Below are positions 4,576 to 21,226 of a stretch of DNA of 32,000 nt, in pieces. The DNA comes from Jiangellales bacterium (GTDB lineage: Bacteria > Actinomycetota > Actinomycetes > Jiangellales > Jiangellaceae), in contig JBBRVP010000006.1 of the NCBI GenBank assembly GCA_038246785.1, forward strand, positions 73,304 through 105,303, read 5' to 3'. A model generated the notes under the pieces. That model saw only the letters and a program-made list of their open reading frames with translations, searched no databases and was not told where the DNA came from. Both the position numbers and the translations under genes were made by a program. Position 1 is the first letter of the stretch. Each line of letters opens with the position of its first letter.

Positions 4576-5376
4576 CTAGTGCCCGAGCAGCTCCCGGACC
4601 TGCTGCGGGCCGAGCGCCCGTGCTGGCACCGCACCCGCGACGATCCGGCGGGTGAGCTCGCGGACCGGCAGCGGGCCGTCCGACGCGACGAGGACCACGT
4701 TGCCGAACCGCCGCCCGCGCAGGTGGGCGGTCTCCCCGACGAGCATGACCCGGCGGAAGGCGTCCAGCGCGGTGCGGGCCTCCGCGCGCACGAGCCGTAG
4801 CCCGGGCTTGTCGGCGACGTTGGCGACGTAAACACCGCCGCGCCGGAGGACGCGCACCACCTCGGCCAGGAACTGCGGGGTCGCCAGGTGGGCGGGGATG
4901 TCCTCGCCGAGGAACGTGTCGCGGACGACGACGTCGAAGCCGTCGGCGGGCAGCGTGCGCATGCCGTCGAGCGCGTCGGTCGCCTGGATGCGGAAGCCGG
5001 CGTCGCGCCGGCGCAGCGCGAACGCCTGTCGCGCCAGGTCGACGAGCGCGGCGTCGTGCTCGAGGACCAGCTGCCGCGAGCCGGGGCGGGTGGCGGTGAC
5101 GTAGCGGGGGAGGGTGCACCCGGCCCCGCCGAGGTGGAGCACCGACAGCGGCTCGCCGCGCGGAGCCAGCACGTCGAGCAGATCCCCGATCCAGCGGACG
5201 TACTCGAACTCCAGCCGGGTCGGGTCAGCCACGTCGACGTAGGAGGACGGGACCCCGTTGACGGTGACGAGCCAGCCGTCGGGGTCGTCGCGCAGGCCCT
5301 CGATCTGCGTCGTGCCGGTGTCGACGTCGTGGCTGCCGGCGAAGGCGGCCGGCTGCGGGTGAGGCTGCCGCGGCAT
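4576..5376 (-). CDS. Spermidine-synthase-like class I SAM-dependent methyltransferase/aminopropyltransferase family protein
   Basis: Track ORF of 266 aa. It carries the SAM-fold glycine-rich motif VLHLGGAGCTLPRY. FDVVVRDTF and LRRGGVYVANV match the spermidine-synthase-like fold pattern. Confidence 0.75.
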   Translation of the reverse strand: MPRQPHPQPAAFAGSHDVDTGTTQIEGLRDDPDGWLVTVNGVPSSYVDVADPTRLEFEYVRWIGDLLDVLAPRGEPLSVLHLGGAGCTLPRYVTATRPGSRQLVLEHDAALVDLARQAFALRRRDAGFRIQATDALDGMRTLPADGFDVVVRDTFLGEDIPAHLATPQFLAEVVRVLRRGGVYVANVADKPGLRLVRAEARTALDAFRRVMLVGETAHLRGRRFGNVVLVASDGPLPVRELTRRIVAGAVPARALGPQQVRELLGH

Positions 5377-5505
5377 GAGCAGACGCTAGAGCAGCCGTCA
5401 GCCGGCGGGCAGAGCAGACTGGGGACTGCGCCCCGCCCGGAATACTTGTCTGCGCAACCACTGTTGAGATGGTCGTCACGACCGTTCCAGCTCGAGGAGA
5501 CTCCC

Positions 5506-6510
5506 GTGCCCGCCGTCACCGTGCCCGATGTCACCGTGCTGGATCGCGTCCCCGCACCCGACCCCGCGACGGCCCTCCCGCGCCCGGTGCGCGGGATCAC
5601 CTCGGCCCCCAGCGGACTGGAGGGGGAGGGCTTCCCCGTACGCCGGGCGTTCGCCGGCGTGGACCTGCGCGCCCTCGACCCGTTCGTGCACATGGACCAG
5701 ATGGGCGAGGTGGAGTACGCCCCCGGCGAGCCGAAGGGCACACCCTGGCACCCGCACCGCGGCTTCGAGACCGTCACCTACATCATGGACGGGATCTTCG
5801 AGCACCAGGACTCCAACGGCGGGGGCGGCGTCATCACCGACGGCGACACCCAGTGGATGACCGCCGGTTCGGGCCTGCTGCACATCGAGCGGCCGCCGGA
5901 GCACCTCGTGGCGAGCGGCGGGCTGTTCCACGGCATCCAGCTGTGGGTCAACCTGCCGCGGGCGCTCAAGCTCGCGCCGCCGCGCTACCAGGACCTGCGC
6001 GGCCGGGAGAGCGCCCTGCTCAGCTCGGCGGACGGCGGCGCCCTGCTGCGTGTCATCGCCGGTGAGCTCGTCGGGCACACCGGTCCGGGCCGCACACACA
6101 CCCCGATCACGTTCATTCACACCACGATCAGCCCCGGCGCCTCGCTGCGGCTGCCGTGGCGCCCCGACTTCAACGCCCTCGTGTACGCGCTGTCCGGCAG
6201 CGGCACGGTCGGTGAGCAGCGGCACGCGATCCGCACCGGGCAGCTCGCCGTCCTCGGCGACGGCGGGTCGGTGACGATCGCCGCCGACCAGGCGCCGGAC
6301 AGCCGTACGCCGGCACTGGACGTGCTGCTGCTCGGCGGCCAGCCGATCCGCGAGCCGGTCGCCTGGGCCGGCCCGTTCGTCATGAACACCAAGGCGGAGG
6401 TCCTGCAGGCGTTCGAGGACTACCAGGCCGGGCGGCTCGGCACGATCCCGGCCGTGCACGGCGACATCCATGGGGCGCCGACTGGCATCGTCGAGGCGGA
6501 CCGCAGCTGA
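5506..6510 (+). CDS. Pirin family (bicupin) protein
   Basis: This is the 3' part of track ORF 4888..6510. The start is set at GTG 5506, 6 nt after GAGGAG at 5494-5499. Pirin signatures are FPVRRAF, DPFVHMDQMG, PWHPHRGFETVTYIMDG.FEHQDS.G and QLWVNLP. Confidence 0.9.
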   Translation: MPAVTVPDVTVLDRVPAPDPATALPRPVRGITSAPSGLEGEGFPVRRAFAGVDLRALDPFVHMDQMGEVEYAPGEPKGTPWHPHRGFETVTYIMDGIFEHQDSNGGGGVITDGDTQWMTAGSGLLHIERPPEHLVASGGLFHGIQLWVNLPRALKLAPPRYQDLRGRESALLSSADGGALLRVIAGELVGHTGPGRTHTPITFIHTTISPGASLRLPWRPDFNALVYALSGSGTVGEQRHAIRTGQLAVLGDGGSVTIAADQAPDSRTPALDVLLLGGQPIREPVAWAGPFVMNTKAEVLQAFEDYQAGRLGTIPAVHGDIHGAPTGIVEADRS

Positions 6511-7912: not shown

Positions 7913-8716
7913 ATGGGGACGGCACCCCCGCCGGCAGCACCGCCGTCCGCGACGCGCACCCCCGGTCCGACGCTGTTCGTGCGCTACGCCTACCCCCCCA
8001 ACGAGCGCGGTTCGTGCGGCCCGCCGCAGCACCGCACCCTGTTCGAGTACGGCGTCGCCGCCGAGGTCGACCCCGGCCTTGAGCTGCTTGCCCGCCAGTT
8101 CGCCGGGGCCTGGCCCTACCTCGAGTTCATCGCGGGCGTCAGCGGCATCCCGGACCCGCTCGACGCCCGCGTGGTCGAGGCGTACTGGCTCGGCAACGAC
8201 CTGCTCGACCGCATCGACATGACCACGTTCGGCAACGCGTTGATGGACCGCTTCCGCCGGGCGGCCGGCCGCTCATGGACCCACCTCGCCGAAGCGATCC
8301 CGGCCGGTGTCGTGCCGCACCACAGCTTCCACGTGTTCCACGTCTACCCGTGGGTCGGGCTGCTCGGCAACGGCCGCGGGGAGCCGCTGGAGGTCCTGCA
8401 GCGCTGCCGGATCCGCTGGGGCCGGGTACTGAGCGTCGAACGCGACCAGGTGGTGGTGGCGTCCCGGCCGCTGCGCTACGTCGACGGCAAGCTGCTGCTG
8501 GGAGAGCCGGAGCCGGAGACCGCGACCAGCGGGATCGACGGGGTCGGGCTGGCCGCCGGTCTGCGACCCGGCGAGTGGGTCGGGCTGCACTGGGGCTGGG
8601 TCTGCGACCGGCTCACGGCGAGCCAGCTGACCAACCTGCGCCGGTTCACGCTGCGACACGTGGAGATCGTCAACAGCCGGCTGGCGCACTCGGGCCCGGC
8701 GCTCACCCTCGGCTGA
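7913..8716 (+). CDS. Conserved hypothetical protein (I recall this family as DUF6390; unverified)
   Basis: ATG 7913 is preceded by GAGGTG. Conserved-looking boxes are FVRYAYPPNERGSCGP, AWPYLEFIAG, VVEAYWLGNDLL and HHSFHVFHVYPW. Its 3' end overlaps the convergent ABC ATPase gene by 14 nt (8703-8716). Confidence 0.75.
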   Translation: MGTAPPPAAPPSATRTPGPTLFVRYAYPPNERGSCGPPQHRTLFEYGVAAEVDPGLELLARQFAGAWPYLEFIAGVSGIPDPLDARVVEAYWLGNDLLDRIDMTTFGNALMDRFRRAAGRSWTHLAEAIPAGVVPHHSFHVFHVYPWVGLLGNGRGEPLEVLQRCRIRWGRVLSVERDQVVVASRPLRYVDGKLLLGEPEPETATSGIDGVGLAAGLRPGEWVGLHWGWVCDRLTASQLTNLRRFTLRHVEIVNSRLAHSGPALTLG

Positions 8717-9812
8717 CCGGGTGCGGGGCCGCCGCGCTCGCCGGTCCGGGCAGCAATCCCACCCGCTGCATGGCCCACCCGCAGCGCTCTCCGATCGCGG
8801 CCCGCGGGGCGCCACCGCCGCGGACCTCCACCTGGCCCGCCGGGGTGTCCAGCCGGTAGATCGTGTCCGGACCCCGGTAGCGCACCGCCAGCACCCGACC
8901 GGGCAGCGGGCCCCCGAGACCGCCCCACTCGGGGCGCAGCAGCAGCGCCGCGCGTCCGGCCGGCGGCTCCCGCCCGCCCGCGACGGCAACGGTGGCCGCC
9001 ACCTCGCCGACCCAGACCTCGATCGAGCCGGGACCGGCGGGGGCCACGGGGAGGTCGAGCGCGCAGGCCGGCCCCGTCAGCCGGGCGGCCCACAGATCCA
9101 CCGGATGCTCGTAGACCTGCTGTGGTGACCCGATCTGCGCCACCGCGCCGCCGCGCAGCAGCGCCACCCGGTCGGCGACTGTGAAGGCCTCCGCCACGTC
9201 GTGGGTCGCGTAGAGCACGGCCGCTCCGAGGGCCGTCCGCTGGGCCGCCAGCTCCTCCTGCAGCACGGTGCGCAGCGGCGCATCGAGGTGCGCGGTCGGC
9301 TCGTCGAACAGGTAGAGCGCGGCGCCTCTGGCCAGGGCCCGCGCGACACCGACCCGCTGCTGCTCACCGCCGGAGAGCTCGGCCGGCCGGCGGTCGGCCA
9401 GCGCCGCGACACCCATCCGTTCCAGCAGCACCATCGCCCGCTGGCGAGCCTCGGCCCGCGGCTGGCCGGCCCGGCGGATCGGGTACGCGACGGTGTCCAG
9501 CGCCGACAGATGCGGCCACAGCGCGTAGTTCTGGAACACCACCGCGACGTCACGGTCCTCCGGTGGATGGCTGCGCGGGCCGTCGACCACGACTCGGCCG
9601 TCGATCCGGATCAGACCGGAGTCCGGGGCGGTGAAGCCGGCCACCGTGTAGAGCAGTGTGGTCTTGCCGCACCCGGACGGCCCGAGCACCGCCATCGCCT
9701 CACCGGCGCACACGGCGAGGTCCAGGTCCCGCAGCACCGGCCGCCGGCCGTAGGACACGGTCAGCCCCACCGCCTCGAGCGCCGGGGCCGGCTCGCGACC
9801 GGCGGCCGTCAT
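8703..9812 (-). CDS. ABC transporter ATP-binding protein, FbpC/PotA-like with a C-terminal TOBE-like domain
   Basis: This is the C-terminal 369 codons of track ORF 8703..11417. The start is ATG 9812 (MTAAGREP...). Walker A is GPSGCGKTTLL, the Q-loop is VFQNYALWPHL, the signature is LSGGEQQRVGVARAL, Walker B is LYLFDEPTAHLD and the H-loop is ATHD. An ATGA overlap joins it to the permease stop (9809-9812). Confidence 0.9.
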   Translation of the reverse strand: MTAAGREPAPALEAVGLTVSYGRRPVLRDLDLAVCAGEAMAVLGPSGCGKTTLLYTVAGFTAPDSGLIRIDGRVVVDGPRSHPPEDRDVAVVFQNYALWPHLSALDTVAYPIRRAGQPRAEARQRAMVLLERMGVAALADRRPAELSGGEQQRVGVARALARGAALYLFDEPTAHLDAPLRTVLQEELAAQRTALGAAVLYATHDVAEAFTVADRVALLRGGAVAQIGSPQQVYEHPVDLWAARLTGPACALDLPVAPAGPGSIEVWVGEVAATVAVAGGREPPAGRAALLLRPEWGGLGGPLPGRVLAVRYRGPDTIYRLDTPAGQVEVRGGGAPRAAIGERCGWAMQRVGLLPGPASAAAPHPVSRG

Positions 9813-11461
9813 GTCGGCACCGACCGCCGGCCGGCGGCCCGGCGGGCCACCAGCAGCAGGCCGGCGGCGGCGGCGATGAGCAGGGTCAACAGCACCGACA
9901 GTGCCGAGGTCACGGCGACGTCTCCGAGCTGCTGGCGGTCGAGGATGACCACGGCCAGTGTCTTCGTGCCCGGCCCGTAGAGCAGGCTGGAGATGGTCAG
10001 CTCGTGCACGGCGAACAGGAAGACCAGCAGCCAGGCCGCGCCTAGGGCGGGCCGCAGCAGCGGCCCGACGATGGTGCGCACCGCCGTGGCCGCCCCGGCG
10101 CCGCTGACCCGGCCGGCGCGGACCAGGTCGGCGGGCAGGCGTTCGGCGGCGCCGGCGAGCGGACGGTGCCCGAGCGCCCAGAACTTCGCGAGGTACGCGA
10201 CGAGGATGATCGCCAGCGTGTCGCGGAGCGACCCTCCGTAGGCCAGCAGCACGGCCACCGCGAGCGTGGAGCCGGCCACCGCGAACGTCATCGTCACGGC
10301 GGTGCCGAGCACCCGGCCCACCCCGGCCCGGCCGAGCGCCGCGCTCAGCGCGCCGATCAGCAGGACGCCGGTGGCCGCGCCGGCGGCCAGCAGGACGGAG
10401 TTGGACAGGGCCTCGTACGTGTGCCCGTCCAGCGCCGCGGCGAAGTTGGCCAGCGTCCAGTTGGCCGGGACCGGGGCGAGCCCGACCGCCCTCGTCAGCG
10501 CCACCAGCACCAGCGCGAGCATGGGCAGCGCGACGGTGATGGCGAGGAACGTCCACAGCGCGGCAGCCAGACCCCACGACCGTCGCCCCGCCGCAGTCGC
10601 TGCGCCGGCGGCACCGCCGGTGCGCGGTGCCCGGCCCGCCCCGGCCAGCGCGTCGACGGGGGCGATGGCGATCACTGCGATCACGACCAGTCCCACCGCC
10701 AGGGCGGCCGCCGCCGCGAACGCCGCAGGGTCCACGGCCAGGGTCAGGTCCTGGTAGATCCGGGTGGTCATGGTGGGGAAGCCGGCTGGGATGCCGAGCA
10801 CCGCGGGCACCTCGAACGCATTGAGCCCGGTCACGAACACCAACGCCGCGGCGGCGGCGATGCCCGGGCGGGCCAGCGGCAGCGTCACGCTGCGGGCGGC
10901 CAGCCCGGCCGTGGCCCCGCAGGCGCGGGCCGCCCGCTCCAGGTCGGGCTCGACTCGGCTGGCCAGGCTCGCGGCGATGACGAGGTAGCCCACCGGCACC
11001 GCGCCGGCGGCGCCCACCACGACGATGCCGGCCGGGCCGTACAGCCCGTCCCAGTGCAGGCCGACCAGTCGGTCGAGCAGGCCGCCGGGCCCGTACGCGC
11101 GTGTCCAGCCGATCGCGCTCACCAGCGGCGCCCCGAGCAGGGCGGCCAGCAGCGCGCCGCGCAGCCAGCCCCGGCCGGGGGCCCGGCTTCGCTCGGTGAC
11201 GAAGGCCGCGGCGGCGCCGCCGAGCAAACCGAGGACCGTGACGGCGAGTGAGGTCCACACGGTGTTGACCACCGCCTGTCCAGTGGCGCCGGTGCGCAGC
11301 GTCCGGCCGACCGCGGCCGGCCCGTCCTCGAGCGCCACCGCGAACAGCCGGACCAGCGGGATGCCGACGAGCAGGACCAGCAGCGCGCTCACCAGCACCA
11401 GCCCGGCCGGCGTCCACGAGGTCGGGCGCCGCAACGACGGGGCCGCGACCGGATCAGTCAC
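9809..11461 (-). CDS. Iron(III)-type ABC transporter permease, two fused permease domains (FbpB-like)
   Basis: Track ORF of 550 aa. It is strongly hydrophobic throughout, with about 12 TM segments in two repeated halves. The size and duplicated architecture are typical of FbpB/ThiP-type permeases. Its GTG start at 11461 overlaps the SBP stop by 8 nt (GTGACTGA). Confidence 0.85.
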   Translation of the reverse strand: MTDPVAAPSLRRPTSWTPAGLVLVSALLVLLVGIPLVRLFAVALEDGPAAVGRTLRTGATGQAVVNTVWTSLAVTVLGLLGGAAAAFVTERSRAPGRGWLRGALLAALLGAPLVSAIGWTRAYGPGGLLDRLVGLHWDGLYGPAGIVVVGAAGAVPVGYLVIAASLASRVEPDLERAARACGATAGLAARSVTLPLARPGIAAAAALVFVTGLNAFEVPAVLGIPAGFPTMTTRIYQDLTLAVDPAAFAAAAALAVGLVVIAVIAIAPVDALAGAGRAPRTGGAAGAATAAGRRSWGLAAALWTFLAITVALPMLALVLVALTRAVGLAPVPANWTLANFAAALDGHTYEALSNSVLLAAGAATGVLLIGALSAALGRAGVGRVLGTAVTMTFAVAGSTLAVAVLLAYGGSLRDTLAIILVAYLAKFWALGHRPLAGAAERLPADLVRAGRVSGAGAATAVRTIVGPLLRPALGAAWLLVFLFAVHELTISSLLYGPGTKTLAVVILDRQQLGDVAVTSALSVLLTLLIAAAAGLLLVARRAAGRRSVPT

Positions 11462-12464
11462 CGAAGATGGCGCGGTAGCCCGCCCGCAGCTCTGCCTGCC
11501 GCGCGAAGATCGCGGACCAGTCGGGGACGACCTCCGGCAACGGAGCCGACATGGCCGGTACGTCGGCGCGGATCGGGTGCCGGTCGAGCTCGGCGAGCGC
11601 TCGCTGCGCCGGCGGGGTCAGCAGGAAGTTCGCCAGGGCCTCGGCGGCCTGCGTCGCGCGGCTGTCGGCGAAGACCGCCACCGGGGCGTACAGCCGCACC
11701 GCACCCGGCGCCGGGGCCGAGATCTCTAGCGGCGAGCCCTTGGTCACCGCTGCCCGGGCGAGGAAGTCGAGGGTCATGCCGGCAGTGAACCGGCCCTCCG
11801 CCACGCCGGAGATGACGTCACCGGGGGACTGCACCTGCACGGCGCCGTTTGCCTTCAGCCGGCGGTAGTAGTCCAGCCCGTAGCCGTCGGCCAGCGCGAA
11901 GTAGCCGAGCGCACCGAACGCTGACCCGGCGAAGCTCGGGTCGGGCAGCGCGACGGCGTCCCGGTACCGCGGGCCGGCCAGGTCCTGCCAGTTCTTCGGT
12001 GCCGCCCCAGGCTCGGACACCACCACCACGTCACTGGTGGTCACGCCCCAGAAGGTGTCGGTGTGGGCCTCGGCCGGTACGGCGGCCGCCGCCGCTGGTG
12101 ACCAGCGGCGGAGCAGCCCCTGGGCGGCGAACTGCTGCATCGACAGCGGATCGGACAGCAGGAGGACGTCGCCGCGGATCCCGCCGGAGCGCTGCTCGGC
12201 GGCCACCCGCGCGGTTATCTGCCCGGTGGGAGCCCGGAACAGCTCGACCCGGGTGCCGGGGGCGCTGGCGTGGTAGGCGGCCAGCAGCGCGTCGACCTCG
12301 GGCTGGCTGTAGGAGGTGTACAGACGCACCGTCGAGCCCGCGGAGGTGCTGCCGGCCGCACCGGGTGCACCGCCGGACGAGCTGCCGCAGCCGGCGAGCA
12401 GTCCGGCCACGAGCAGTCCGGCCACGAGCAGGGTCGCCGGGACGGCCCGCGCCGGCCGCCTCAC
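11454..12464 (-). CDS. ABC transporter substrate-binding lipoprotein, Fe(III)/FbpA-AfuA-like family
   Basis: Part of track ORF 11454..12719, with the start set at GTG 12464. The signal peptide VRRPARAVPATLLVAGLLVAGLLAGC ends in a lipobox (LAGC). The mature part reads TVRLYTSYSQPEVDALLAAYHA..PGTRVELFRAPTGQITARVAAEQRSGGIRGDVLLLSD, like family-1 Fe3+ binding proteins. The GTG overlaps the hypC stop (GTGA, 12461-12464). Confidence 0.85.
   Translation of the reverse strand: MRRPARAVPATLLVAGLLVAGLLAGCGSSSGGAPGAAGSTSAGSTVRLYTSYSQPEVDALLAAYHASAPGTRVELFRAPTGQITARVAAEQRSGGIRGDVLLLSDPLSMQQFAAQGLLRRWSPAAAAAVPAEAHTDTFWGVTTSDVVVVSEPGAAPKNWQDLAGPRYRDAVALPDPSFAGSAFGALGYFALADGYGLDYYRRLKANGAVQVQSPGDVISGVAEGRFTAGMTLDFLARAAVTKGSPLEISAPAPGAVRLYAPVAVFADSRATQAAEALANFLLTPPAQRALAELDRHPIRADVPAMSAPLPEVVPDWSAIFARQAELRAGYRAIFGD
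12396..12431 (-). repeat. In-frame 15-nt tandem duplication (2.4 copies) inside the SBP signal peptide
   Basis: On the plus strand, GAGCAGTCCGGCCAC occurs at 12396-12410 and again at 12411-12425, followed by a partial GAGCAG. It encodes the repeated LLVAG-LLVAG-LL in the h-region of the signal peptide. Confidence 0.9.
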
Positions 12465-12721
12465 GCCGGCGCCCCGTCCGGCCCGTCGAGCGGGCGGCCC
12501 ATCAGCTGCAACCCCTCCAGTGCCTCCCGGGCCGCCGCCTCGTCGACCTTCTCCATGGCGAAGCCCATGTGGATGAGCACCCAGCTGCCCGGCTCGACAC
12601 CCGCGTCCTCGAGCATCCCGATGTTGACCTTGCGCTGGCCGCCGACGACGTCGACGAGCGCAAGCTGGTCGCCGTAGCCCTCGACGAGCTCCACCACCTG
12701 GCCGGGAATCCCGAGGCACAT
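12461..12721 (-). CDS. hypC: HypC/HybG/HupF-family [NiFe]-hydrogenase maturation chaperone
   Basis: Track ORF of 86 aa. The N-terminus MCLGIPGQVVE is the invariant HypC signature (Cys2). VNIGML....PGSWVLIHMGFAME is typical of the family. Confidence 0.95.
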   Translation of the reverse strand: MCLGIPGQVVELVEGYGDQLALVDVVGGQRKVNIGMLEDAGVEPGSWVLIHMGFAMEKVDEAAAREALEGLQLMGRPLDGPDGAPA

Positions 12722-13258: not shown

Positions 13259-13378
13259 TCACATGCTGCGCATCTCGAGGTAGCGCTTGATGTCGGGGAT
13301 CGAGCGCAGGCCGATCACAGCGGCGCCGGCGACGGCCGCCGCGAGCAGCGCAGTGGTGAAAACTCCTACTGCCTTCAC
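13259..13378 (-). CDS. 39-aa single-TM microprotein (I recall the family as DUF6893; unverified)
   Basis: It is hidden as the last 39 codons of the spurious track ORF 13259..14629. It reads VKAVGVFTTALLAAAVAGAAVIGLRSIPDIKRYLEMRSM. The GTG start at 13378 overlaps the stop of the upstream 475-aa gene (GTGA, 13375-13378). The protease SD follows within the next 30 nt. One hydrophobic helix is followed by a basic amphipathic tail. Confidence 0.65.
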   Translation of the reverse strand: MKAVGVFTTALLAAAVAGAAVIGLRSIPDIKRYLEMRSM

Positions 13379-14802
13379 GGGTCCTCCTCCTCCCGGCGGG
13401 TGCGGGACGGTCCGGCGTCCGCGAGGGGCTCCAGCTCCTCGGGGGCGAAGTGCAGGTAACGGCCGTACCAGTCGTGGAGGTCGGCAGCGGGGTCGTCGTC
13501 GAGGACGACGGCGACATGCGTGCCGCCGTCGACGTCGCGCTGCACGGCGGCCACGCGAGCGGTGCGTCCGGCGAAGAAGAGGTCCTGCGCATCGGCCCGG
13601 CGGGACGGCCGCAGTCGCACCAGGCTGCCCTTGCCGACGACGGCGGCACCGACCTGGACCGTCTCGCGCTCCGGGTCGACGGCGGCGTCGACCCCGGGGT
13701 CCCACCACGGGGTGCCGGGAAGCGGGAACTCCGAGATCGGGACCTCGGGGCGCGGGAACTCGGCTGGCGGCAGCTCGGCGCTTGCCGTGGGGCTCCAGGT
13801 CGCCGCGCCGTGCGGGTCGCGCAGCACGCCGTGCAGCCGCTGCAGGTCGGCCGGCGACATCGCCTCGACCCGGTCGAGGATCGCGGCGGCATGGGCGTCG
13901 GTTGCCCGGGCCGCCGCCTTCTCCTCCTCGGTGAGGGTCAGCACCCGCAGGGTCAGGATCTCGTCGATCTCGGTGGAGTCGAACAGCGCTCCAACGCTCT
14001 CGGGCGCTATCGCCGGGTGGTCGTACAGGATGATCGGCGAGAGCAGGGCGATGTCGGTCTCGCCCTGCTCGCCGGCCAGCACGGGCCAGCAGCGGTGCTG
14101 CGCGCACCGCTCCGCGGCGTCGACGGCGTCCGCCGGGGGATCGATCACCGACACGAACTCCGCGTCGGTCACGGCCAGCAGCACGTGCGCACCGATTAAC
14201 GACGCCTGGATCGCCGCGTCCTTGGTGCCGTCGGCGGGGACGAGGTTGTGCACGGTCGTCCGCAGCCGGAGCAGGGAGCCGTCCTGCTCGGCACGCAGCC
14301 CCAGCTCTCCCCGCAGCGCCCGGCGACGGCGCAGCAGCCGCCCGGCGAGCGCGCCGGCAGCGTCGCGCAGCGGCTCCGTGTCCGCTCCGCCAGCCACCGC
14401 GATCGGCGTCCGCCACCCCGCCCGGAGAGCCTGGACGTCGACCGGTCCGAGCTCGAGCTCCCGCTCGACGGCCTCGTCCCAGGCAACCCAGCTGGTCCCG
14501 CCGACGGTGAGCTCGTCGACGGGGGTCGTCGAACCGTCGGGGTCGACCCGCTCGAGCCCGCGCCGCTGCAGCTGTAGGAAGCGGACGAAGACCCGGACCC
14601 GCGCCTGTCCGCCCGCGCGCAGCAGGCACTGCGCGGACATCTCCGATTCCTCACCGACGCCGGCCTCGGCCGCACCGACCGGCCCGAGGACGCCGAACTG
14701 CCAGCGCACCTGGTTCTTGCGCGAGGTCGACCGGTACGGATAGAGCAGGTAGCCCTCGTAGAGGACCGCGTCGGCCACCGCGCGCGCCAGGGCGAGGCTC
14801 AC
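13375..14802 (-). CDS. Conserved hypothetical protein, 475 aa, hydrogenase-linked, function unknown
   Basis: Track ORF 13375..14802. Boxes that look conserved are LYEGYLLYPYRSTSRKNQVRWQFGVLGP, HRCWPVLAGE, LSPIILYDHP and FDSTEIDEILTLRVLTLTEEEK, plus a C-terminal beta-rich part GSLVRLRP..ADAQDLFFAGRTARV. It has GTGA overlaps at both ends (14799-14802 and 13375-13378). Confidence 0.85.
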   Translation of the reverse strand: MSLALARAVADAVLYEGYLLYPYRSTSRKNQVRWQFGVLGPVGAAEAGVGEESEMSAQCLLRAGGQARVRVFVRFLQLQRRGLERVDPDGSTTPVDELTVGGTSWVAWDEAVERELELGPVDVQALRAGWRTPIAVAGGADTEPLRDAAGALAGRLLRRRRALRGELGLRAEQDGSLLRLRTTVHNLVPADGTKDAAIQASLIGAHVLLAVTDAEFVSVIDPPADAVDAAERCAQHRCWPVLAGEQGETDIALLSPIILYDHPAIAPESVGALFDSTEIDEILTLRVLTLTEEEKAAARATDAHAAAILDRVEAMSPADLQRLHGVLRDPHGAATWSPTASAELPPAEFPRPEVPISEFPLPGTPWWDPGVDAAVDPERETVQVGAAVVGKGSLVRLRPSRRADAQDLFFAGRTARVAAVQRDVDGGTHVAVVLDDDPAADLHDWYGRYLHFAPEELEPLADAGPSRTRREEEDP

Positions 14803-15440
14803 CGGACGACCTGACCCGCCTCGGCCAGCAGCGCCTCGACCGTGGCGTCCCAGCTGAGCAGGCCGCGCTCGGACTTGAAGCGGGCGAGCGCAGCGAGGGT
14901 GTCACGGTCGAGTCGCAGCCACGAGCTGCCGGGGAAGTAGCGGTCCATCAGCTCGCGCCACACCCGTACGGGCAGCCGATAGCTGCACTCGCGGTCCCAC
15001 GGGACCTGGGCCACCGAGAAGCCCGTCGTGCCGCGGGTGAACACGGTCCCGCTGAACAGCAGCACGAGCGGGATCTCGCCGTCACGCAACGCCTGCAAGT
15101 AGTTCGTGCCGGCGACCTCGAAGTCGTACGTGCACGGCAGCGCCAGCTCGACCTCGGTGCCGCCGGTGAAGCCCTGCACCATCGCGGTGGCGTGCAGCCA
15201 CAGGAACGGCTTGACGGTGTCGCCCCAGCGCGGGCGAGGTCCGAACAGGTCGGCCAGCCCGGCCGCCTCCGCGTCGTCGTAGCGGCGCCGCTGCGGCTCG
15301 ATGCGGACCTGGGCGCGCAGCGCGAGCGCGTGGACGACCTCGCCGGTGGTCTCCTCGACCCGGAGCCGGGCGACCAGCGTCGGGACGGCGGCGTACGGCT
15401 CGGCGGCGATGTCGAGGACGGAGAACGTGAGCGCGCTCAT
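14799..15440 (-). CDS. Conserved hypothetical protein, 213 aa (I recall the family as DUF6084; unverified)
   Basis: This is the C-terminal 213 codons of track ORF 14799..16688, with the start at ATG 15440 (MSALTFSVLDIAAEPYAAVPTL...). An ATGA overlap joins it to the upstream gene's stop (15437-15440). The sequence is protein-like and non-repetitive. Confidence 0.8.
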   Translation of the reverse strand: MSALTFSVLDIAAEPYAAVPTLVARLRVEETTGEVVHALALRAQVRIEPQRRRYDDAEAAGLADLFGPRPRWGDTVKPFLWLHATAMVQGFTGGTEVELALPCTYDFEVAGTNYLQALRDGEIPLVLLFSGTVFTRGTTGFSVAQVPWDRECSYRLPVRVWRELMDRYFPGSSWLRLDRDTLAALARFKSERGLLSWDATVEALLAEAGQVVR

Positions 15441-16135
15441 GCCGGCGCCCCCGCCCCGGGTGCAGGCCGGCTGCGCGCGGCCACCGACGTGAAGAAGTCC
15501 TCGATCGTGTCCCGCGCGTCCTGGCCCCCGTCGAAGCCGCGCCACACCTGGCGCAGCCGGCCGACCAGCTCGTAGCAGGCGTCGATCGGCACCAGGTAGC
15601 ACTGTGGCGGGTCGCCGGGACCGCTTCGCGACGCGTCCGGCACCCGCACGATCAGGGCCTCGACGTCGGGGGCCAGTGCCCCCAGCCCGGGGTTGCCCGC
15701 GACCACCTCGGCCCACGCCTCGAGCGCGAGCTCGGACTCGGCGGCTCCCGCCGGGCCCGGGTAGAACGCGACGGTCCGTCCGAGCACGGAGTTGTCGAAG
15801 AAGAAGGCGAGCCCGACCGGGATCTGCAGCTGCTCCCAGAGCCCCGGCTCGAGCCGGAACTGCGGGAAGGACAGGTAGCGGTCCGGGACGGCGCGATAGC
15901 GCAGCTGCGCCCCCTCGGCGGTGAAGAGCAGGTAGCAGGCCCGGCAGGTGCACATCAGCCCGCGGCTGGTGAGGTCGACGACGTGGGAGTGGGGCTCGGC
16001 GATGGGCGTCGCGCACATCTCGCAGCGCTCCCCGGGCGAGGGTGCAGGCCGGTTGGTCGTGATCCGGCTGAGTACCGCCAGGGCGGCGGCGTCCGGGCCG
16101 GTCCCGCCCGGCCGCGATGTCGCTGCCGGCTTCAC
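15437..16135 (-). CDS. Conserved hypothetical Cys-rich protein, 232 aa (I recall the family as DUF5947; unverified)
   Basis: Track ORF 15437..16135. It has a Cys cluster, CEMCATPIAEPHSHVVDLTSRGLMCTCRACYLLF (CxxC...CxCxxC), that looks like a metal site. The GTG start at 16135 overlaps the upstream stop (GTGA, 16132-16135). Confidence 0.8.
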   Translation of the reverse strand: MKPAATSRPGGTGPDAAALAVLSRITTNRPAPSPGERCEMCATPIAEPHSHVVDLTSRGLMCTCRACYLLFTAEGAQLRYRAVPDRYLSFPQFRLEPGLWEQLQIPVGLAFFFDNSVLGRTVAFYPGPAGAAESELALEAWAEVVAGNPGLGALAPDVEALIVRVPDASRSGPGDPPQCYLVPIDACYELVGRLRQVWRGFDGGQDARDTIEDFFTSVAARSRPAPGAGAPA

Positions 16136-17094
16136 GTACCGACCGCCCGCGGTACGGCGAGGCGGACGACACCGTCGCGGACCAGCAGCGGCACCGGGTC
16201 GAGGTGCTCAACCTCCCCGTCGGCGCCCGGGCCGTCGAGCCCGGCCCCCGCGTGCCGGACGTCGAAGTGGGACCGGCAGGCCGGGCAGCGCAGCACCGCG
16301 TCGTCGGCGGCGCCGCCGAGGCGGCGCTCGAGCCGCGCGCCCGACAGCGCCGCCGAGCAGTGCGGGCAGGAGTCGCGGTAGGCGTAGTACACCGAGCCGG
16401 CCCGGGCCACGACGACCGCGATCCCGGCGACGTCGACGCCGCACAGCTCGCCGGAGCCGAGGCCGGCGAGTTCGGGTACAGGCTCCCAGCCGGTCCCCGG
16501 GCTGACCGCGGGCGCGTCCAGCCGCACTCGAAGCGCGGCGACGGGGATGACCGGCTCCTGGCTGGGAGCGGGCGCCGGGTCGTGCGCGGGCGCCTCCACC
16601 TCGATGCCGGTGACCTCCGGGGCCGCCGCCTCCACGGCGTCCTTGACGGCGAGCTGAAGGGTGACCGCCGACGACGGGCAGCCGTCACAGCTGCCGAGCA
16701 GCGCTAGCCGGACCACGCCCTGCGCCGTGACCTCGATCAGCTCCACGTCCCCGCCGTGCGAGCCGAGGTAGGGCCGCACCCGGTCCAGGGCCCGGCCGAC
16801 CCGGGTCGAGACGTCGTGGGGGTGCAGACCGTGCACCAGCAGCAGGCTGGCCACCAGGTCGTCGTCGGCCAGCGCGTCGAGGGTCGCCGCGTCGAGCCGC
16901 CCCCGCTCGTGCACGATGTCGAGCACCCGCTCCAGGCCGGCGCCGTAGAGGTCGGCGGTCAGCCGGACGAGCTCCTCGGCCCGCTCTCGGGCCACCGCCC
17001 CGCCGGCCGCGCTGGCGTCGAGCAGGGCCTCGATCCGGGCGCCGGTGGCCCGCAGGTCAGGCGCGCCGCCGTCGGCAGTCTCCGGCCCGCTCAC
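16132..17094 (-). CDS. hhyE: Hydrogenase-associated Fe-S protein: NifU/Nfu-type domain fused to a C-terminal Rieske-like domain (HhyE-like)
   Basis: Track ORF of 320 aa. The central part, LGSHGGDVELIEV...VVRLALLGSCDGCPSSAVTLQ, is the Nfu/NifU C-terminal CxxC scaffold motif. The C-terminal part, YRDSCPHCSAAL...(x)...LRCPACRSHF, contains CxH and CxxH spacing reminiscent of Rieske [2Fe-2S] ligands plus two extra Cys. The position directly after the large subunit matches the putative Fe-S proteins HucE/HhyE reported for mycobacterial uptake hydrogenases. Confidence 0.8.
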   Translation of the reverse strand: MSGPETADGGAPDLRATGARIEALLDASAAGGAVARERAEELVRLTADLYGAGLERVLDIVHERGRLDAATLDALADDDLVASLLLVHGLHPHDVSTRVGRALDRVRPYLGSHGGDVELIEVTAQGVVRLALLGSCDGCPSSAVTLQLAVKDAVEAAAPEVTGIEVEAPAHDPAPAPSQEPVIPVAALRVRLDAPAVSPGTGWEPVPELAGLGSGELCGVDVAGIAVVVARAGSVYYAYRDSCPHCSAALSGARLERRLGGAADDAVLRCPACRSHFDVRHAGAGLDGPGADGEVEHLDPVPLLVRDGVVRLAVPRAVGT

Positions 17095-17104
17095 GTGGCA
17101 CGGC

Positions 17105-18895
17105 TCACTCGGCGGTCAATGACTGGGTTGGGCTGTGCGTCTTCTCCAGGACCTTCCCGCCGCCGAGGTACATGTGCACGCCGCAGGGCAGGCACGGGTC
17201 GAAGCTGCGGACGGTGCGCATGATGTCGATGCCCTTGAAGTGTTCCCGGTCGTTCTCCTCGAAGATCGGCTGGCCCTGCACGGCGTCCTCGTACGGGCCC
17301 GGGGTGCCGTAGGAGTCACGCGGGTTGGCGTTCCACGGGGTCGGCGGGTACGGGTGGTAGTTGGCGATCTTGCCGTCGCGGATCACCATGTGGTGGGAGA
17401 GGACCCCGCGCACCGCCTCGGTGAAGCCGCAGCCGATCGCCTCGTCGGGGACCTCGAAGCGCTCCCACGTCTTCGTCCGCCCGGCCCGGATCTCGACGAG
17501 CGCCTGCTCGGCGAAGTGCAGGGCGCAGGCGGCGGCGTAGGCCTGGAAGTAGGTCCGGGCCCGGTTGCGCTCGATGGTGTTGCTCCACTGCGGAATCTTC
17601 CACTCCATCGAGACCGGCCCCTTCAGCGCGGTCTTGGGCAGGTTGATCTGGACGCTGCTGCCGGTGGCCTTCACGTACCCGATGTCGACCAGGCCGGCGA
17701 GCGCCGTCGACCACAGCCGGGCCAACGGGCCGCCGCCGGTGTCCAGGGCGAGGTGGTCCTTGCCGTCGAACCAGCGCGGAGACATCACCCAGCTGTACTT
17801 GTCGTCCAGGTCGCGCTTCTGCGGCCTGGGATTGGTGTGCTGGTTCCACGGGTGCCGGCGGTCGACCGGGTTGCCGAGCGGGTCGTGGGTGACGAAGGTC
17901 TCCTGGTCCTCCCAGTCCTCGTAGTAGGAGCTGCCGAGCAGGATCCGGATGCCGAGGTTGATTGCAACGAGGTCGGTGGTGACGAGCTTCCCGTCGACGA
18001 TGACGCCGGGGGTCACGAACATCTTGCGGCCCCACTCGGTCATGTCCCGGTAGGCGAAGTTGCAGTGCTCCGGGTCCTGGAACGAGCCCCAGCAGCCGAG
18101 CAGCGTGCGGCGCAGCCCCACCTGCTCGTAGCCGGGCAGTGCCTCGTAGAAGAAGTCGAACAGGTCGTCGTGCATCGGCACGACCTTCTTCATGAACTCC
18201 ACGTAGCGCATGAGCCGGCTCATGTAGTCGGTCATGAGCTGGATCGTCGCCACGGTGCCGACGCCGCCGGGATACAGCGTCGAGGGGTGCACGTGGCGCC
18301 CCTCCATCAGGCAGAACATCTCCCGTGTCGACCGGCTGACCGCCAGCGCCTCGCGGTAGAACTCGCCGGTGAACGGGTTGAGCGAGCGCATGATGTCGCC
18401 GATGGTGCGGTAGCCGTGCTCGCCGGCGTGCGGCGCCTCGGTCCCGTTGGCCCGTTCCAGGACGCCCGGGTTGGTCTCGGCGACCATCTTCTCGCAGAAG
18501 TCGACCCCGACGAGGTTCTCCTGGAAGATGTTGTGGTCGAACATGTACTCGGCGGCCTCGCCGAGGTTGACGATCCACTCCCCGAGGTGCGGCGGCTTCA
18601 CGCCGTACGCCATGTTCTGCGTGTAGCACGAGCAGGTCGCATGGTTGTCGCCGCAGATGCCGCAGATGCGGCTGGTGATGAAGTGGGCGTCGCGGGGGTC
18701 CTTGCCCTTCATGAAGATGGAGTAGCCGCGGAAGATCGAGGACGTGCTGTGGCACTCGACGACCTCACGCTGCTTGAAGTCGATCTTCGTGTAGATGCCG
18801 AGGCTGCCCACGATCCGGGTGATCGGGTCCCACGCCATCTCGACGAGCTCGGTGTCGGTGCTCGTCGAGGTCCGTCGCGACGTGGTCGCCGTCAT
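17105..18895 (-). CDS. hhyL: [NiFe]-hydrogenase large subunit, group 1h (formerly group 5), high-affinity type
   Basis: Track ORF of 596 aa. The N-terminal Ni-Fe ligand motif is FITSRICGICGDNHATCS. The C-terminal motif is VRSFDPCLPCGVHMY. These are the L1/L2 signatures I recall for group 5/1h. A protease-cleavable tail follows the final His. Confidence 0.97.
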   Translation of the reverse strand: MTATTSRRTSTSTDTELVEMAWDPITRIVGSLGIYTKIDFKQREVVECHSTSSIFRGYSIFMKGKDPRDAHFITSRICGICGDNHATCSCYTQNMAYGVKPPHLGEWIVNLGEAAEYMFDHNIFQENLVGVDFCEKMVAETNPGVLERANGTEAPHAGEHGYRTIGDIMRSLNPFTGEFYREALAVSRSTREMFCLMEGRHVHPSTLYPGGVGTVATIQLMTDYMSRLMRYVEFMKKVVPMHDDLFDFFYEALPGYEQVGLRRTLLGCWGSFQDPEHCNFAYRDMTEWGRKMFVTPGVIVDGKLVTTDLVAINLGIRILLGSSYYEDWEDQETFVTHDPLGNPVDRRHPWNQHTNPRPQKRDLDDKYSWVMSPRWFDGKDHLALDTGGGPLARLWSTALAGLVDIGYVKATGSSVQINLPKTALKGPVSMEWKIPQWSNTIERNRARTYFQAYAAACALHFAEQALVEIRAGRTKTWERFEVPDEAIGCGFTEAVRGVLSHHMVIRDGKIANYHPYPPTPWNANPRDSYGTPGPYEDAVQGQPIFEENDREHFKGIDIMRTVRSFDPCLPCGVHMYLGGGKVLEKTHSPTQSLTAE

Positions 18896-18922: not shown

Positions 18923-19978
18923 CTACCAGGTCCGGCGGGCGCCGGTGACGAGCTCGGAACCCCGGGTACGCCACTTGGGCTCCTTGTCCAGCGTGCGCAT
19001 CGTGATCTGGCGCAGGTTGCGGATCGTGGAGCCGTAGAGGCCGACCGCGGTCGTCGACAGCTTGCCGCCGGGAGGCTCGTCCATGAACGGCATGAACTTG
19101 TCGGGGAAGCCGGGCATCGTGCAGCCGATACAGATGCCGCCGACGTTGGGGCAGCCGCCGACACCGTTCATCCAGCCGCGCTTGGGCACGTTGCACTTCA
19201 CGACCGGCCCCCAGCAGCCCAGCTTGACGATGCACTTCGGCGAGCCGTACTCGGTGGCGAAGTCGGCCTGCTCGTAGTAGCCCGCGCGGTCGCAGCCCTC
19301 GTGCACGGTGGCGCCGAAGAGCCAGGTCGGCCGCAGCGCCTCATCGAGCGGGATCATCGGCGCCTGGTCGGTGGCCATGTAGAGCAGGTAGGTCAGGGTC
19401 TCGGACAGGTTGTCCGGCTGGATCGGGCAGCCCGGCACGCAGACGATCGGGATGCCGGCCTTGGACTTCCAGTCCCACCCGAGGTAGTCGGGTACCCCCA
19501 TTGCGCCGGTCGGGTTGCCGGCCATGGCATGGATGCCGCCGTACGTCGCGCAGGTGCCGGCCGCGACGATCGCGGTCGCCTTCGGGGCGAGGCGGTCCAG
19601 CCACTCGCTGGTCGTCATCGGCTGGCCGGTGGCGGGGTCGTTGCCGAACCCGCACCAGTAACCCTCGTCCTTGATCTTCTCGTTCGGGATGGAGCCCTCG
19701 ACGACCAGCACGAACGGCTCCAGCTCGCCCCGGTCGGCCTTGAAGAACCACTCGAGGAAGTCGTCGGCGCCGCCGGCGGGACCGCACTCGAAGTCGATGA
19801 GCGGCCAGTGCACGGCGATCTTCGGCAACCCCGGCAGGGCCCCGAGCGCGATCTCCTCGATGCTGGGCTGGGTGGCGGCCGTGAGGGCCACCGAGTCCCC
19901 GTCGCAGCTGAGCCCCGCGTTGATCCACAGAACATGGATCAGGGTCTCCTCGGCCTTGGTCGCAGCCGCAGTCGGCAT
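18923..19978 (-). CDS. hhyS: [NiFe]-hydrogenase small subunit, group 1h, no Tat signal
   Basis: Track ORF 18923..19999. I prefer ATG 19978 (MPTAAATKAEETLIHVLWINAGLSCDGDS...). TTG 19999 is the alternative. Fe-S ligand boxes are GTCATYGG, VPGCP, HEGCDRAGY, KLGCWGP and GGCPNVGGICIGCTMPGFPD. There is no RRxFxK twin-arginine leader. Confidence 0.95.
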   Translation of the reverse strand: MPTAAATKAEETLIHVLWINAGLSCDGDSVALTAATQPSIEEIALGALPGLPKIAVHWPLIDFECGPAGGADDFLEWFFKADRGELEPFVLVVEGSIPNEKIKDEGYWCGFGNDPATGQPMTTSEWLDRLAPKATAIVAAGTCATYGGIHAMAGNPTGAMGVPDYLGWDWKSKAGIPIVCVPGCPIQPDNLSETLTYLLYMATDQAPMIPLDEALRPTWLFGATVHEGCDRAGYYEQADFATEYGSPKCIVKLGCWGPVVKCNVPKRGWMNGVGGCPNVGGICIGCTMPGFPDKFMPFMDEPPGGKLSTTAVGLYGSTIRNLRQITMRTLDKEPKWRTRGSELVTGARRTW

Positions 19979-20058
19979 GCCCACCGCTTCCCGGGGCAAC
20001 GCCCGCCCCTGGTGCCACCGGAGCCGGGCATCGGCCCACCTGCGTGGCCTGGACCCCG

Positions 20059-20163: not shown

Positions 20164-20895
20164 TCACCGAGCGTCGATCCACGCGTACCAGGCGGCGATC
20201 CCGGTCCCGTGGGTCGCCGACAGCGCCAGCACCTCGACGCCGGGGTTCACCGAGCGCGCGTGCGTCGCACAGACCCCGACGTCGAAGTCGACGTAGGGCA
20301 GCAGGTCGGTCTTGTTGACCAGGACCAGGTCGGCTGCGGCGAACATGTGCGGGTACTTCAGCGGCTTGTCCTGGCCCTCGGTCACCGAGACGACGACCAC
20401 CCGGGCGCGCTCACCGAGGTCGAACAGCGCCGGGCAGACGAGGTTGCCGACGTTCTCCACGAGCACGAGGGCGCCCCGGGGCGGGTCGAGGGCGTCCAGC
20501 GCCCGCTGGGTCATGTCGGCGTCGAGGTGGCAACCGGCCCCGGTGTTGACCTGGACGACGGGTACGCCGGTGGCCCGGATCCGCTCGGCGTCCAGCGCGG
20601 TCTCCTGGTCGCCCTCGACGACGGCGACCGGCCGCTGCCGCGCCAGATCTCGCACCGTCCGCTCCAGCAGCGTCGTCTTCCCCGAACCCGGGGAGCTCAT
20701 GAGGTTGAGCGCGACCACGTCGCGCTCGGCCAGCCAGGCCCGCGTACGCGCCGCCAGCCGATCGTTCTTGGCCAGCACGCGCTGCTCCAGCGACACGACG
20801 TTGCCGTGCGCGTGCTCGTCGTGGTCATGGTCGTGGACGCCCACACCGTCGAGCCGGGGGCCGGCGTCCTCGCCGCAGCCGCACGTGGCGCACAC
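20164..20895 (-). CDS. hypB: Hydrogenase nickel-incorporation GTPase HypB
   Basis: Part of track ORF 20164..21009. The start is GTG 20895, giving VCATCGCGE (the HypB N-terminal CxxCGC metal site). There is a His-rich stretch, HDHDHDEHAHG. The GTPase P-loop is SSPGSGKTTLL. ENVGNLVCP and NKTDL are also present. The start lies 1 nt after the hypA stop. Confidence 0.95.
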   Translation of the reverse strand: MCATCGCGEDAGPRLDGVGVHDHDHDEHAHGNVVSLEQRVLAKNDRLAARTRAWLAERDVVALNLMSSPGSGKTTLLERTVRDLARQRPVAVVEGDQETALDAERIRATGVPVVQVNTGAGCHLDADMTQRALDALDPPRGALVLVENVGNLVCPALFDLGERARVVVVSVTEGQDKPLKYPHMFAAADLVLVNKTDLLPYVDFDVGVCATHARSVNPGVEVLALSATHGTGIAAWYAWIDAR

Positions 20896-20896
20896 C

Positions 20897-21226
20897 TCAG
20901 GCCACCTCCATCGCCGAGATCGCCAGCTCGCGTCCGGCGAGCACCTCGACGTCGCTGCTGCCGCACGGGCAGAGCAGCACGAGGTTGGGCAGGTCGAAGG
21001 TCGCGGCACAGGACCGGCAACCGGCCCGGCCGGCCGGCTCGTCGATCCGCAGGGCCGCCCCCTCCGCCGGCGTGCCCGCCGCCACCAGGTCGAAGCTGAA
21101 GCGCAGCGCGTCCGGGACGACCCCCGACAGCCGACCGACCCGCAGCCGGACCTCGACGATGCGTCGCCCGGCGGCCCGCTCGGTCACGGTGTCCACGATG
21201 CTCTGCGCGATCGACAACTCGTGCAC
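20897..21226 (-). CDS. hypA: Hydrogenase nickel-insertion/maturation factor HypA
   Basis: This is the C-terminal 109 codons of track ORF 20897..21583. The start is GTG 21226, giving VHELSIAQSIVDTV (the HypA MHE Ni-binding N-terminus). The Zn-site cysteines are CRSC ... CPCG. GGGTGG lies 5 nt upstream of the start. Confidence 0.92.
   Translation of the reverse strand: MHELSIAQSIVDTVTERAAGRRIVEVRLRVGRLSGVVPDALRFSFDLVAAGTPAEGAALRIDEPAGRAGCRSCAATFDLPNLVLLCPCGSSDVEVLAGRELAISAMEVA

Follow-up and report, generated by a model that had tools for sequence, protein, structure and literature searches.

The window analyzed here is a 32-kb stretch (~75% G+C) of the Jiangellales bacterium contig JBBRVP010000006.1, and its minus strand carries a group 1h [NiFe]-hydrogenase operon of the order hypA-hypB-hhyS-hhyL-g1-g2-g3-g4-g5-protease-hypC. 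Group 1h hydrogenases take up a large share of atmospheric H2 and are attractive as O2-insensitive catalysts. Our subject is g1 to g5, the five minus-strand open reading frames (ORFs) that lie between the large subunit gene hhyL and the gene of the maturation protease. On balance we favor the reading that these genes are a lineage-specific group 1h accessory set acting as a dedicated aerobic maturation or assembly module rather than as an electron acceptor. We lean this way because g4 is found naturally fused to the maturation endopeptidase and because endopeptidase processing appears to be real in group 1h.

Many g4 homologues are proteins of 600–680 residues that end in a HycI endopeptidase domain. 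The g4-HycI arrangement was found in no fewer than 10 of the 120 relatives listed, and for Acidimicrobiia it was met repeatedly in assemblies made independently (NCBI, JGI, ENA and Logan). One g4-protease fusion (P0323) keeps the whole C-terminus of g4 and the whole N-terminus of the protease, with a linker of ~40 residues between them, and in the Acidimicrobiia locus L083 the fused gene stands in the normal position, after the gene of the DUF6084 protein (g3). A fusion of DUF6084 to g4 was found in one lineage (P0236; 765 residues, 28 cluster members), where it is preceded by a 375-residue fusion of g1 to the DUF5947 protein (g2) in a locus with intact hhySL. Two units emerge from the reliable fusions, one of g1 and g2 and the other of g3, g4 and the endopeptidase.

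Other candidate fusions were discarded. Three apparent DUF6084-g4 proteins (P0293, P0294 and P0307) are frameshift artefacts in which an Arg-rich out-of-frame stretch replaces part of one domain, and same-ORF fusions in the MFD-series loci from metagenome-assembled genomes (MAGs; e.g., L005 and L015) were discounted since several genes there are split. A DUF5947-g4 fusion (P0249) was also discounted, as its locus looks decayed (hhySL and g3 are missing and hypB is a fragment). An apparently decayed Hhy locus is seen at L086/L087 (8268–11339), where a hypB fragment, a short g1, an in-frame DUF5947-g4 fusion and the protease are found with no DUF6084 and no hhyS or hhyL within 9 kb; a Pirin gene lies nearby, as it does in the window (4888–6510).

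Alignment confirms HhyL as a genuine group 1h large subunit. It shares 75–78% identity with the large subunits of Cupriavidus necator and Methylocystis, and its L1 (TSRICGICGDNH) and L2 (SFDPCLPCGVH) motifs, both in invariant alignment columns, match the group 1h motifs quoted in the literature (PMC5364354). Its closest solved relative, and the sole close one, is HofG of 5AA5 (1091 bits). HhyL has a C-terminal extension of 22 residues after the CGVH motif, and the 5AA5 HofG chain terminates at the residue aligned to HhyL His574. A chain end at that residue suggests endopeptidase processing of group 1h enzymes.

In the scheme we favor, the unit of g1 and g2 would handle or protect a metal or iron-sulfur (Fe-S) cofactor during synthesis in air, plausibly for the small subunit HhyS; g2 would contribute an invariant metal site (five Cys, two His), to which actinobacterial g1 would add an Nfu-type CxxC and a Cys4 Rieske-fold domain. 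The unit of g3, g4 and the endopeptidase would keep hold of the Ni-loaded precursor of HhyL or present it, so that its C-terminal extension of ~22 residues can be removed or the subunit can be joined to HhyS. Finally, g5, a predicted single-pass membrane micropeptide whose basic tail is probably cytoplasmic, would in Actinobacteria recruit either this machinery or the completed enzyme to the membrane.

The gene chain and its conservation

The original prediction, made from the letters of the window, had placed five tightly coupled genes between hhyL and the protease, and all five ORFs were found on the minus strand, at the predicted coordinates and in the predicted order. Their codon composition, a third-position G+C fraction (GC3) of 0.82–0.95 versus ~0.5 at second positions (GC2), is the coding signature expected for a 75% G+C genome. 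The genes of the operon are as follows.

20900..21226, minus strand: hypA (Ni metallochaperone), the first operon gene as far as traceable; tblastn with C. necator HypA, E = 7e-28, and with L083 HypA, E = 9e-19
20164..21009, minus strand: hypB, given as the longest ORF, the real start being probably just below the hypA stop; Pfam cobW/HypB/UreG, E = 2e-25; tblastn with C. necator HypB, E = 1.5e-86
18923..19999, minus strand: hhyS, group 1h small subunit; Pfam Oxidored_q6 and NiFe_hyd_SSU_C; N-terminus without an RRxF motif and without a Tat signal
17105..18895, minus strand: hhyL, group 1h large subunit, by identity to the C. necator and Methylocystis enzymes and to 5AA5 HofG and by its L1/L2 motifs
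16132..17094, minus strand: g1, HhyE-like, 320 residues; Pfam NifU (71 bits) and Rieske (29 bits)
15437..16135, minus strand: g2, DUF5947, 232 residues; Pfam, 242 bits
14799..15440, minus strand: g3, DUF6084, no metal motif; Pfam, 324 bits
13375..14802, minus strand: g4, 475 residues, no Pfam family; many homologues and natural fusions
13259..13378, minus strand: g5, DUF6893 micropeptide, 39 residues; Pfam, 60 bits
12726..13262, minus strand: maturation endopeptidase of the HupD/HycI type; TIGR00072 superfamily, 118.9 bits (cut-off 47.45), and Pfam HycI
12461..12721, minus strand: hypC, the last hydrogenase gene of the operon; Pfam HupF_HypC, 80 bits, and tblastn

Maturation genes thus stand at both ends of the operon (hypA/hypB and protease/hypC). 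No hypD, hypE or hypF was found in the window, promoter and terminator scans gave nothing informative, and Pfam scans over all operon genes found no cytochrome b. When g1 to g5 were compared with the Hyp (HypA-F) and Hox/Hup accessory families, no Pfam or NCBIfam match was obtained beyond the NifU and Rieske matches of g1, which bears out the earlier statement that the five genes are neither the canonical Hyp set nor a cytochrome b.

The four predicted 4-nucleotide stop/start overlaps are all present with the sequences originally read (GTGA at 16132–16135, ATGA at 15437–15440, GTGA at 14799–14802 and GTGA at 13375–13378). An additional GTGA overlap (13259–13262) joins the g5 stop to the protease start, and hence six genes are chained, from g1 to the protease. 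Overlaps of four nucleotides are the commonest kind in high-GC operons and alone are no proof of fixed stoichiometry; the claim of obligate co-translation at fixed stoichiometry therefore over-reads a common operon feature.

To place the window among its relatives we used an HhyL-anchored scan, with one genome per species, which gave 80 actinobacterial loci; together with two proteobacterial plasmid loci these made a set of 82. The exact order hhyS-hhyL-g1-g2-g3-g4-g5-protease-hypC was seen in 67 of these loci, the remainder being mostly truncated by contig ends, without a detected g5, or with g5 after the protease. Overlaps of −4 occur at the g1/g2, g2/g3 and g3/g4 junctions of 59, 69 and 73, respectively, of ~80 loci and are rarer at the flanks (hhyL/g1, 16; protease/hypC, 7). 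As overlaps are frequent within g1 to g4 and rare at the flanks, coupling is a conserved property of these particular junctions. The same gene order was found in C. necator pHG1, a Methylocystis plasmid and a Gemmatimonadaceae MAG. Order and co-occurrence are thus conserved across phyla, and in most lineages the genes are not absent or scattered.

The g1 to g4 set is the known set designated PHG066-PHG069 in C. necator H16, MSMEG_2718 (HhyE) and the genes downstream of it in Mycobacterium smegmatis, and hhaABC elsewhere. On pHG1 the genes of the small and large subunits are likewise followed by those of a NifU-family protein, a DUF5947 protein, a DUF6084 protein, a 476-residue hypothetical protein (38.5% identical to g4 over 94% of its length) and the protease, and the annotated coordinates overlap at the junctions. 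However, PHG066 has only 192 residues and lacks both the NifU CxxC and the Rieske-fold Cys4 domain of g1, pHG1 has no DUF6893 micropeptide, and the pHG1 locus continues directly into hypFCDEAB, whereas in the window hypAB lie upstream and hypDEF are absent. In M. smegmatis the counterparts of g2 and the genes after it lie downstream of hhyE, and the hypothetical gene MSMEG_2717, located there, is stated to be homologous to PHG067, the DUF5947 gene (PMC6883350). The hhaABC genes of Thermomicrobium roseum are co-regulated with hhyLS (PMC6776052).

Among the five genes a phenotype is published for the first (HhyE) only (PMC6883350), as the original prediction had held; it was also right that the other four genes have no assigned role, since they fall in Pfam DUFs or are called hypothetical, and a report of July 2026 (PMC13332983) still names these genes hypothetical proteins. 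A full-text literature search on the four DUF family names returned a single paper, which is unrelated. The gene set, its conservation and its uncharacterized status are already in the literature, and the window adds one orthologous copy.

The five proteins

Profile searches placed four of the five proteins in Pfam families well above threshold, the exception being g4. The first protein, g1, has an N-terminal helical region, a NifU-fold domain (71 bits) with a CxxC motif (C136/C139) and a Rieske-fold domain (PF00355; 29.2 bits, cut-off 20.3; residues 203–290) with C243, C246, C270 and C273. Its position directly after hhyL and its NifU CxxC plus two C-terminal CxxC motifs fit the published description of M. 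smegmatis HhyE (PMC6883350). We rejected a true Rieske [2Fe-2S] protein, for which the ligand set would be C-x-H...C-x-x-H: box II of g1 is C270-x-x-C273 and the box I His245 is replaced by R, A or V in orthologues, so that the site is a Cys4 one. The three Cys pairs (C136/C139, C243/C246 and C270/C273) are kept in 66–76 of 83 orthologues. The NifU CxxC, retained in 73–76 of these, is missing in C. necator, Methylocystis, Acidimicrobiia, the fused lineage and short Actinoplanes forms, and the C-terminal Cys4 domain is missing in ~15. Given that several lineages lack the NifU CxxC, redox chemistry cannot be the conserved role of g1.

The situation for g2 is the reverse. It matches DUF5947 (PF19372; 242 bits, cut-off 25) and has the motif C38-x2-C41-x7-H49-x-H51-x10-C62-x-C64-x2-C67 followed by an alpha/beta domain, and these five Cys and two His residues are invariant in every sequence examined across phyla. 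As g1 loses its cysteines in some lineages and g4 has no universal Cys or His motif, g2 is the only universal metal-binding candidate of the set. The public gene call of g2 (P0409; NCBI/Logan) begins at Met40 and gives 193 residues, which excludes the invariant Cys38. Hence, the 232-residue form with the GTG start that overlaps g1, as originally predicted, fits conservation better. The AlphaFold2 (AF2) model of g2 (predicted local distance difference test, pLDDT, 76.5) is confident for the alpha/beta domain and of low confidence in the region of the metal motif, and Foldseek found no match to it in PDB or BFVD.

When g2, g3 and g4 were searched as profiles against the sequences of PDB entries, no match fell below E = 0.19. 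The match of g3 to DUF6084 (PF19562) is strong (324 bits, cut-off 25), whereas no Pfam or NCBIfam model matched g4. The latter has many homologues (>7,000 clusters at 90% and 3,964 representatives at 50% identity), and the named clusters are almost all called 'hypothetical protein'. In the AF2 model of g4 (pLDDT 76) an N-terminal helix leads into a large beta domain modeled with confidence (residues 54–255); a helical region and a disordered linker follow, and an SH3-like barrel (residues 380–460) makes up the C-terminal part. Foldseek against PDB and BFVD gave a match to DrmA that is statistically notable and geometrically poor (E = 2e-5; TM 0.19), and the barrel gave SH3-like matches to PetP and nitrile hydratase beta.

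No universally conserved Cys or His motif was found among the homologues of g4, and a putative metal motif (C233/C238) was dropped on finding that it is absent from the fused and the Acidimicrobiia homologues. Internal homology within the set was also rejected, since by hhalign neither g3 and g4 nor g2 and g4 are related. One g4 homologue (P0398) is labeled 'phage head-tail adaptor' in an NCBI MAG annotation. This label is probably a spurious transfer, perhaps made through the small C-terminal beta-barrel; against viral models Foldseek gave only weak small-barrel matches for g4.

The micropeptide g5 matches DUF6893 (PF21833; 60.1 bits, cut-off 24.6). In 76 aligned orthologues a variable hydrophobic helix precedes a near-invariant C-terminal tail, S-I-P-D-x-x-R-Y-x-x-x-R-x-M. 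A metagenome scan for the tail motif gave 80 loci, of which 78 adjoin g4, the protease or hypC, and thus the g5 family is specific to this locus. The loci of C. necator, Methylocystis and Gemmatimonadaceae gave no g5 hit, and tblastn of g5 against plasmids found nothing. Two g5 copies were seen in metagenome loci that include L104 (4199–5090) and L098 (3879–4400), as well as L096, L109, L111, L125, L149 and L152; in some of these, short acidic Pro/Ser/Thr-rich ORFs, probably disordered, lie between g5 and the protease.

We tentatively suggest, while thinking it rather improbable, that g5 tethers actinobacterial Hhy to the membrane, with its helix embedded there and its basic tail in the cytoplasm docking either the hydrogenase or the g3-g4-protease unit. 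A possible analogy, for g5 only, is HucM of the group 2a hydrogenase Huc, a small locus-encoded link between the membrane and a hydrogenase that lacks both transmembrane segments and a Tat signal (PMC10017518). However, HucM is a 189-residue protein that forms a tetrameric scaffold with a lipid-filled tube (PMC10017518), whereas g5 is a 39-residue single-helix peptide without similarity to it, whose interaction with Hhy is putative.

A favored role in maturation and its alternatives

Published work on HhyE agrees with a role in maturation. HhyE is needed for Hhy activity in M. smegmatis, and the activity lost in the ΔhhyE strain is not compensated by the artificial acceptor nitroblue tetrazolium; the authors themselves list maturation as plausible for HhyE (PMC6883350). 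No PDB chain, those of the crystallized group 1h enzyme 5AA5 included, matches g2, g3 or g4 although HhyL does find its match there, and the crystallized enzyme consists of two subunits. Purified Huc, for its part, contains HucS, HucL and HucM only and reduces menaquinone analogues directly, and the HhyE homologue HucE is unmentioned in the Huc paper (PMC10017518).

A hydrogenase-specific extra maturation set has a parallel in the HoxL/O/Q/R/T/V (HupF/G/H/I/J/K) proteins of the O2-tolerant, membrane-bound hydrogenases of group 1d; their genes stand after the structural genes and before those of the protease or the Hyp proteins, they are needed for assembly in air, and one of them is rubredoxin-like. 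The analogy is one of proposed role and not of family membership, since g1 to g5 show no sequence or profile similarity to that set, and group 1h has no Tat signal peptide for chaperones of the HoxO/Q type to bind.

Several points weigh against a maturation module. The g4-protease fusion shows functional linkage and not a biochemical role, and Foldseek against PDB gave no informative fold for g2 or g4. The invariant Cys and His residues of g2 might form a redox-active Fe-S center, and the C. necator counterpart of g2, PHG067, has been proposed as the electron acceptor (PMC6883350). HhyE is reported to co-localize with HhyL and HhyS on native gels, as would also be expected of a subunit, and M. 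smegmatis hhyE is grouped with the structural operon (PMC6883350). Finally, the group 1h enzyme of Methylacidiphilum SolV is active, membrane-associated and coupled to respiration in an organism reported to lack these genes (PMC7174314). As SolV manages without them, any maturation role is replaceable there and the module is not universally indispensable. SolV carries Hox/Hup-type accessory genes (PMC5364354), which could be its substitute.

The leading proposal of the original prediction was that the genes are the missing electron-transfer link to the respiratory chain. In this scheme g1, g2 and perhaps g3 and g4 would carry electrons from HhyS to menaquinone, with g5 as the anchor. We consider it unlikely. 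It would suit an operon that has no cytochrome b gene and a small subunit without a Tat signal, and both the CxxC and Cys4 motifs found in most g1 orthologues and the invariant motif of g2 could serve electron carriers. HhyE is required for H2 uptake and an acceptor has been proposed in PHG067 (PMC6883350), and Hhy is membrane-associated while no membrane anchor is known for the enzyme (PMC13332983). However, an artificial acceptor failed to rescue ΔhhyE (PMC6883350), and the putative Fe-S ligands of g1 are lost in C. necator and Acidimicrobiia. Fusion of g4 to the maturation protease in many lineages also speaks against an electron carrier, as does the failure of any PDB chain, 5AA5 included, to match g2, g3 or g4. 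Active Hhy runs as a low-molecular-weight species on native gels (bioRxiv 10.1101/769216). Moreover, SolV couples H2 oxidation to respiration without the genes (PMC7174314) and Huc reduces quinone analogues directly without HucE (PMC10017518). The second proposal of the original prediction, an Fe-S assembly or O2-tolerance module, comes closer to the evidence when cast as a maturation module.

Less probable still is a role in scaffolding, oligomerization or membrane docking like that of HucM, in which g3 and g4 would organize HhySL via g5 and have no catalytic or chaperone function. The large, multi-domain g4 without a universally conserved metal motif and the locus-specific membrane micropeptide g5 would suit such a role, and membrane association appears important for high affinity (PMC7174314). 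Yet Hhy migrates as a low-molecular-weight species, the endopeptidase fused to g4 works on the precursor only transiently, and C. necator keeps g1 to g4 although its locus lacks g5 and its enzyme is reported to be cytoplasmic (PMC7174314).

Protection or repair after assembly, keeping the [NiFe] site or the Fe-S clusters working in air (e.g., by reductive reactivation or cluster repair), is very improbable: it would suit the Nfu-type and rubredoxin-like motifs of g1, the rubredoxin-related factor that, as cited in PMC6883350, supports aerobic maturation of the Ralstonia eutropha group 1d hydrogenase, and the loss of activity of the isolated SolV enzyme, from an organism without the genes, on H2 depletion in O2 traces (PMC7174314), but the endopeptidase fusion indicates a step before or at C-terminal processing and the g1 cysteines are dispensable in several lineages.

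Neighboring genes and significance

Directly downstream of hypC on the minus strand (8703–12419) lies an ABC importer composed of a substrate-binding protein, a fused double permease and an ATPase. It weakly resembles systems of the Fe(III) or 2-aminoethylphosphonate type, below every curated cut-off, and its binding protein recurs in just 3 of the 82 related loci. Beyond the transporter, on the opposite strand, is one further gene.

7913..8716, plus strand: DUF6390 gene; Pfam, 309 bits

Homologues of this gene occur in 37 of the 82 HhyL-anchored loci, in several of which they stand immediately after hypC on the hydrogenase strand; by this co-occurrence DUF6390 is a sixth conserved uncharacterized family linked to Hhy loci. 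A PEBP gene and the 188-residue ORF upstream of hypA are not conserved at Hhy loci. Hhy loci of Acidimicrobiia have, after the protease and g5, a gene for a YceI-domain protein (L083, 8310–8831; L084, 4361–4873; L079, 5764–8839). The YceI family is annotated as polyisoprenoid-binding, and this protein could be a lineage-specific quinone- or lipid-handling partner; tblastn found no YceI homologue in the window.

The new results, all computational, are the chain of fusions, the contrast between the dispensable g1 cysteines and the invariant g2 site, the exclusive association of g5, with its conserved tail, with this locus and the corrected g2 start. They sharpen an acknowledged question without answering it. 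Should g5 prove to be a tether, it would explain why actinobacterial Hhy is membrane-associated and of high affinity whereas the C. necator enzyme, at whose locus g5 is missing, is soluble and of low affinity. For two matters, the attachment of group 1h enzymes to the membrane and respiratory chain and the needs of their assembly (the latter relevant to producing them in other hosts), the five genes are obvious candidates that await exploration, and the fusion pattern (g1 to g2, g3 to g4 and g4 to the protease) predicts that they would form two physical units and that they would act at the processing of the large subunit.

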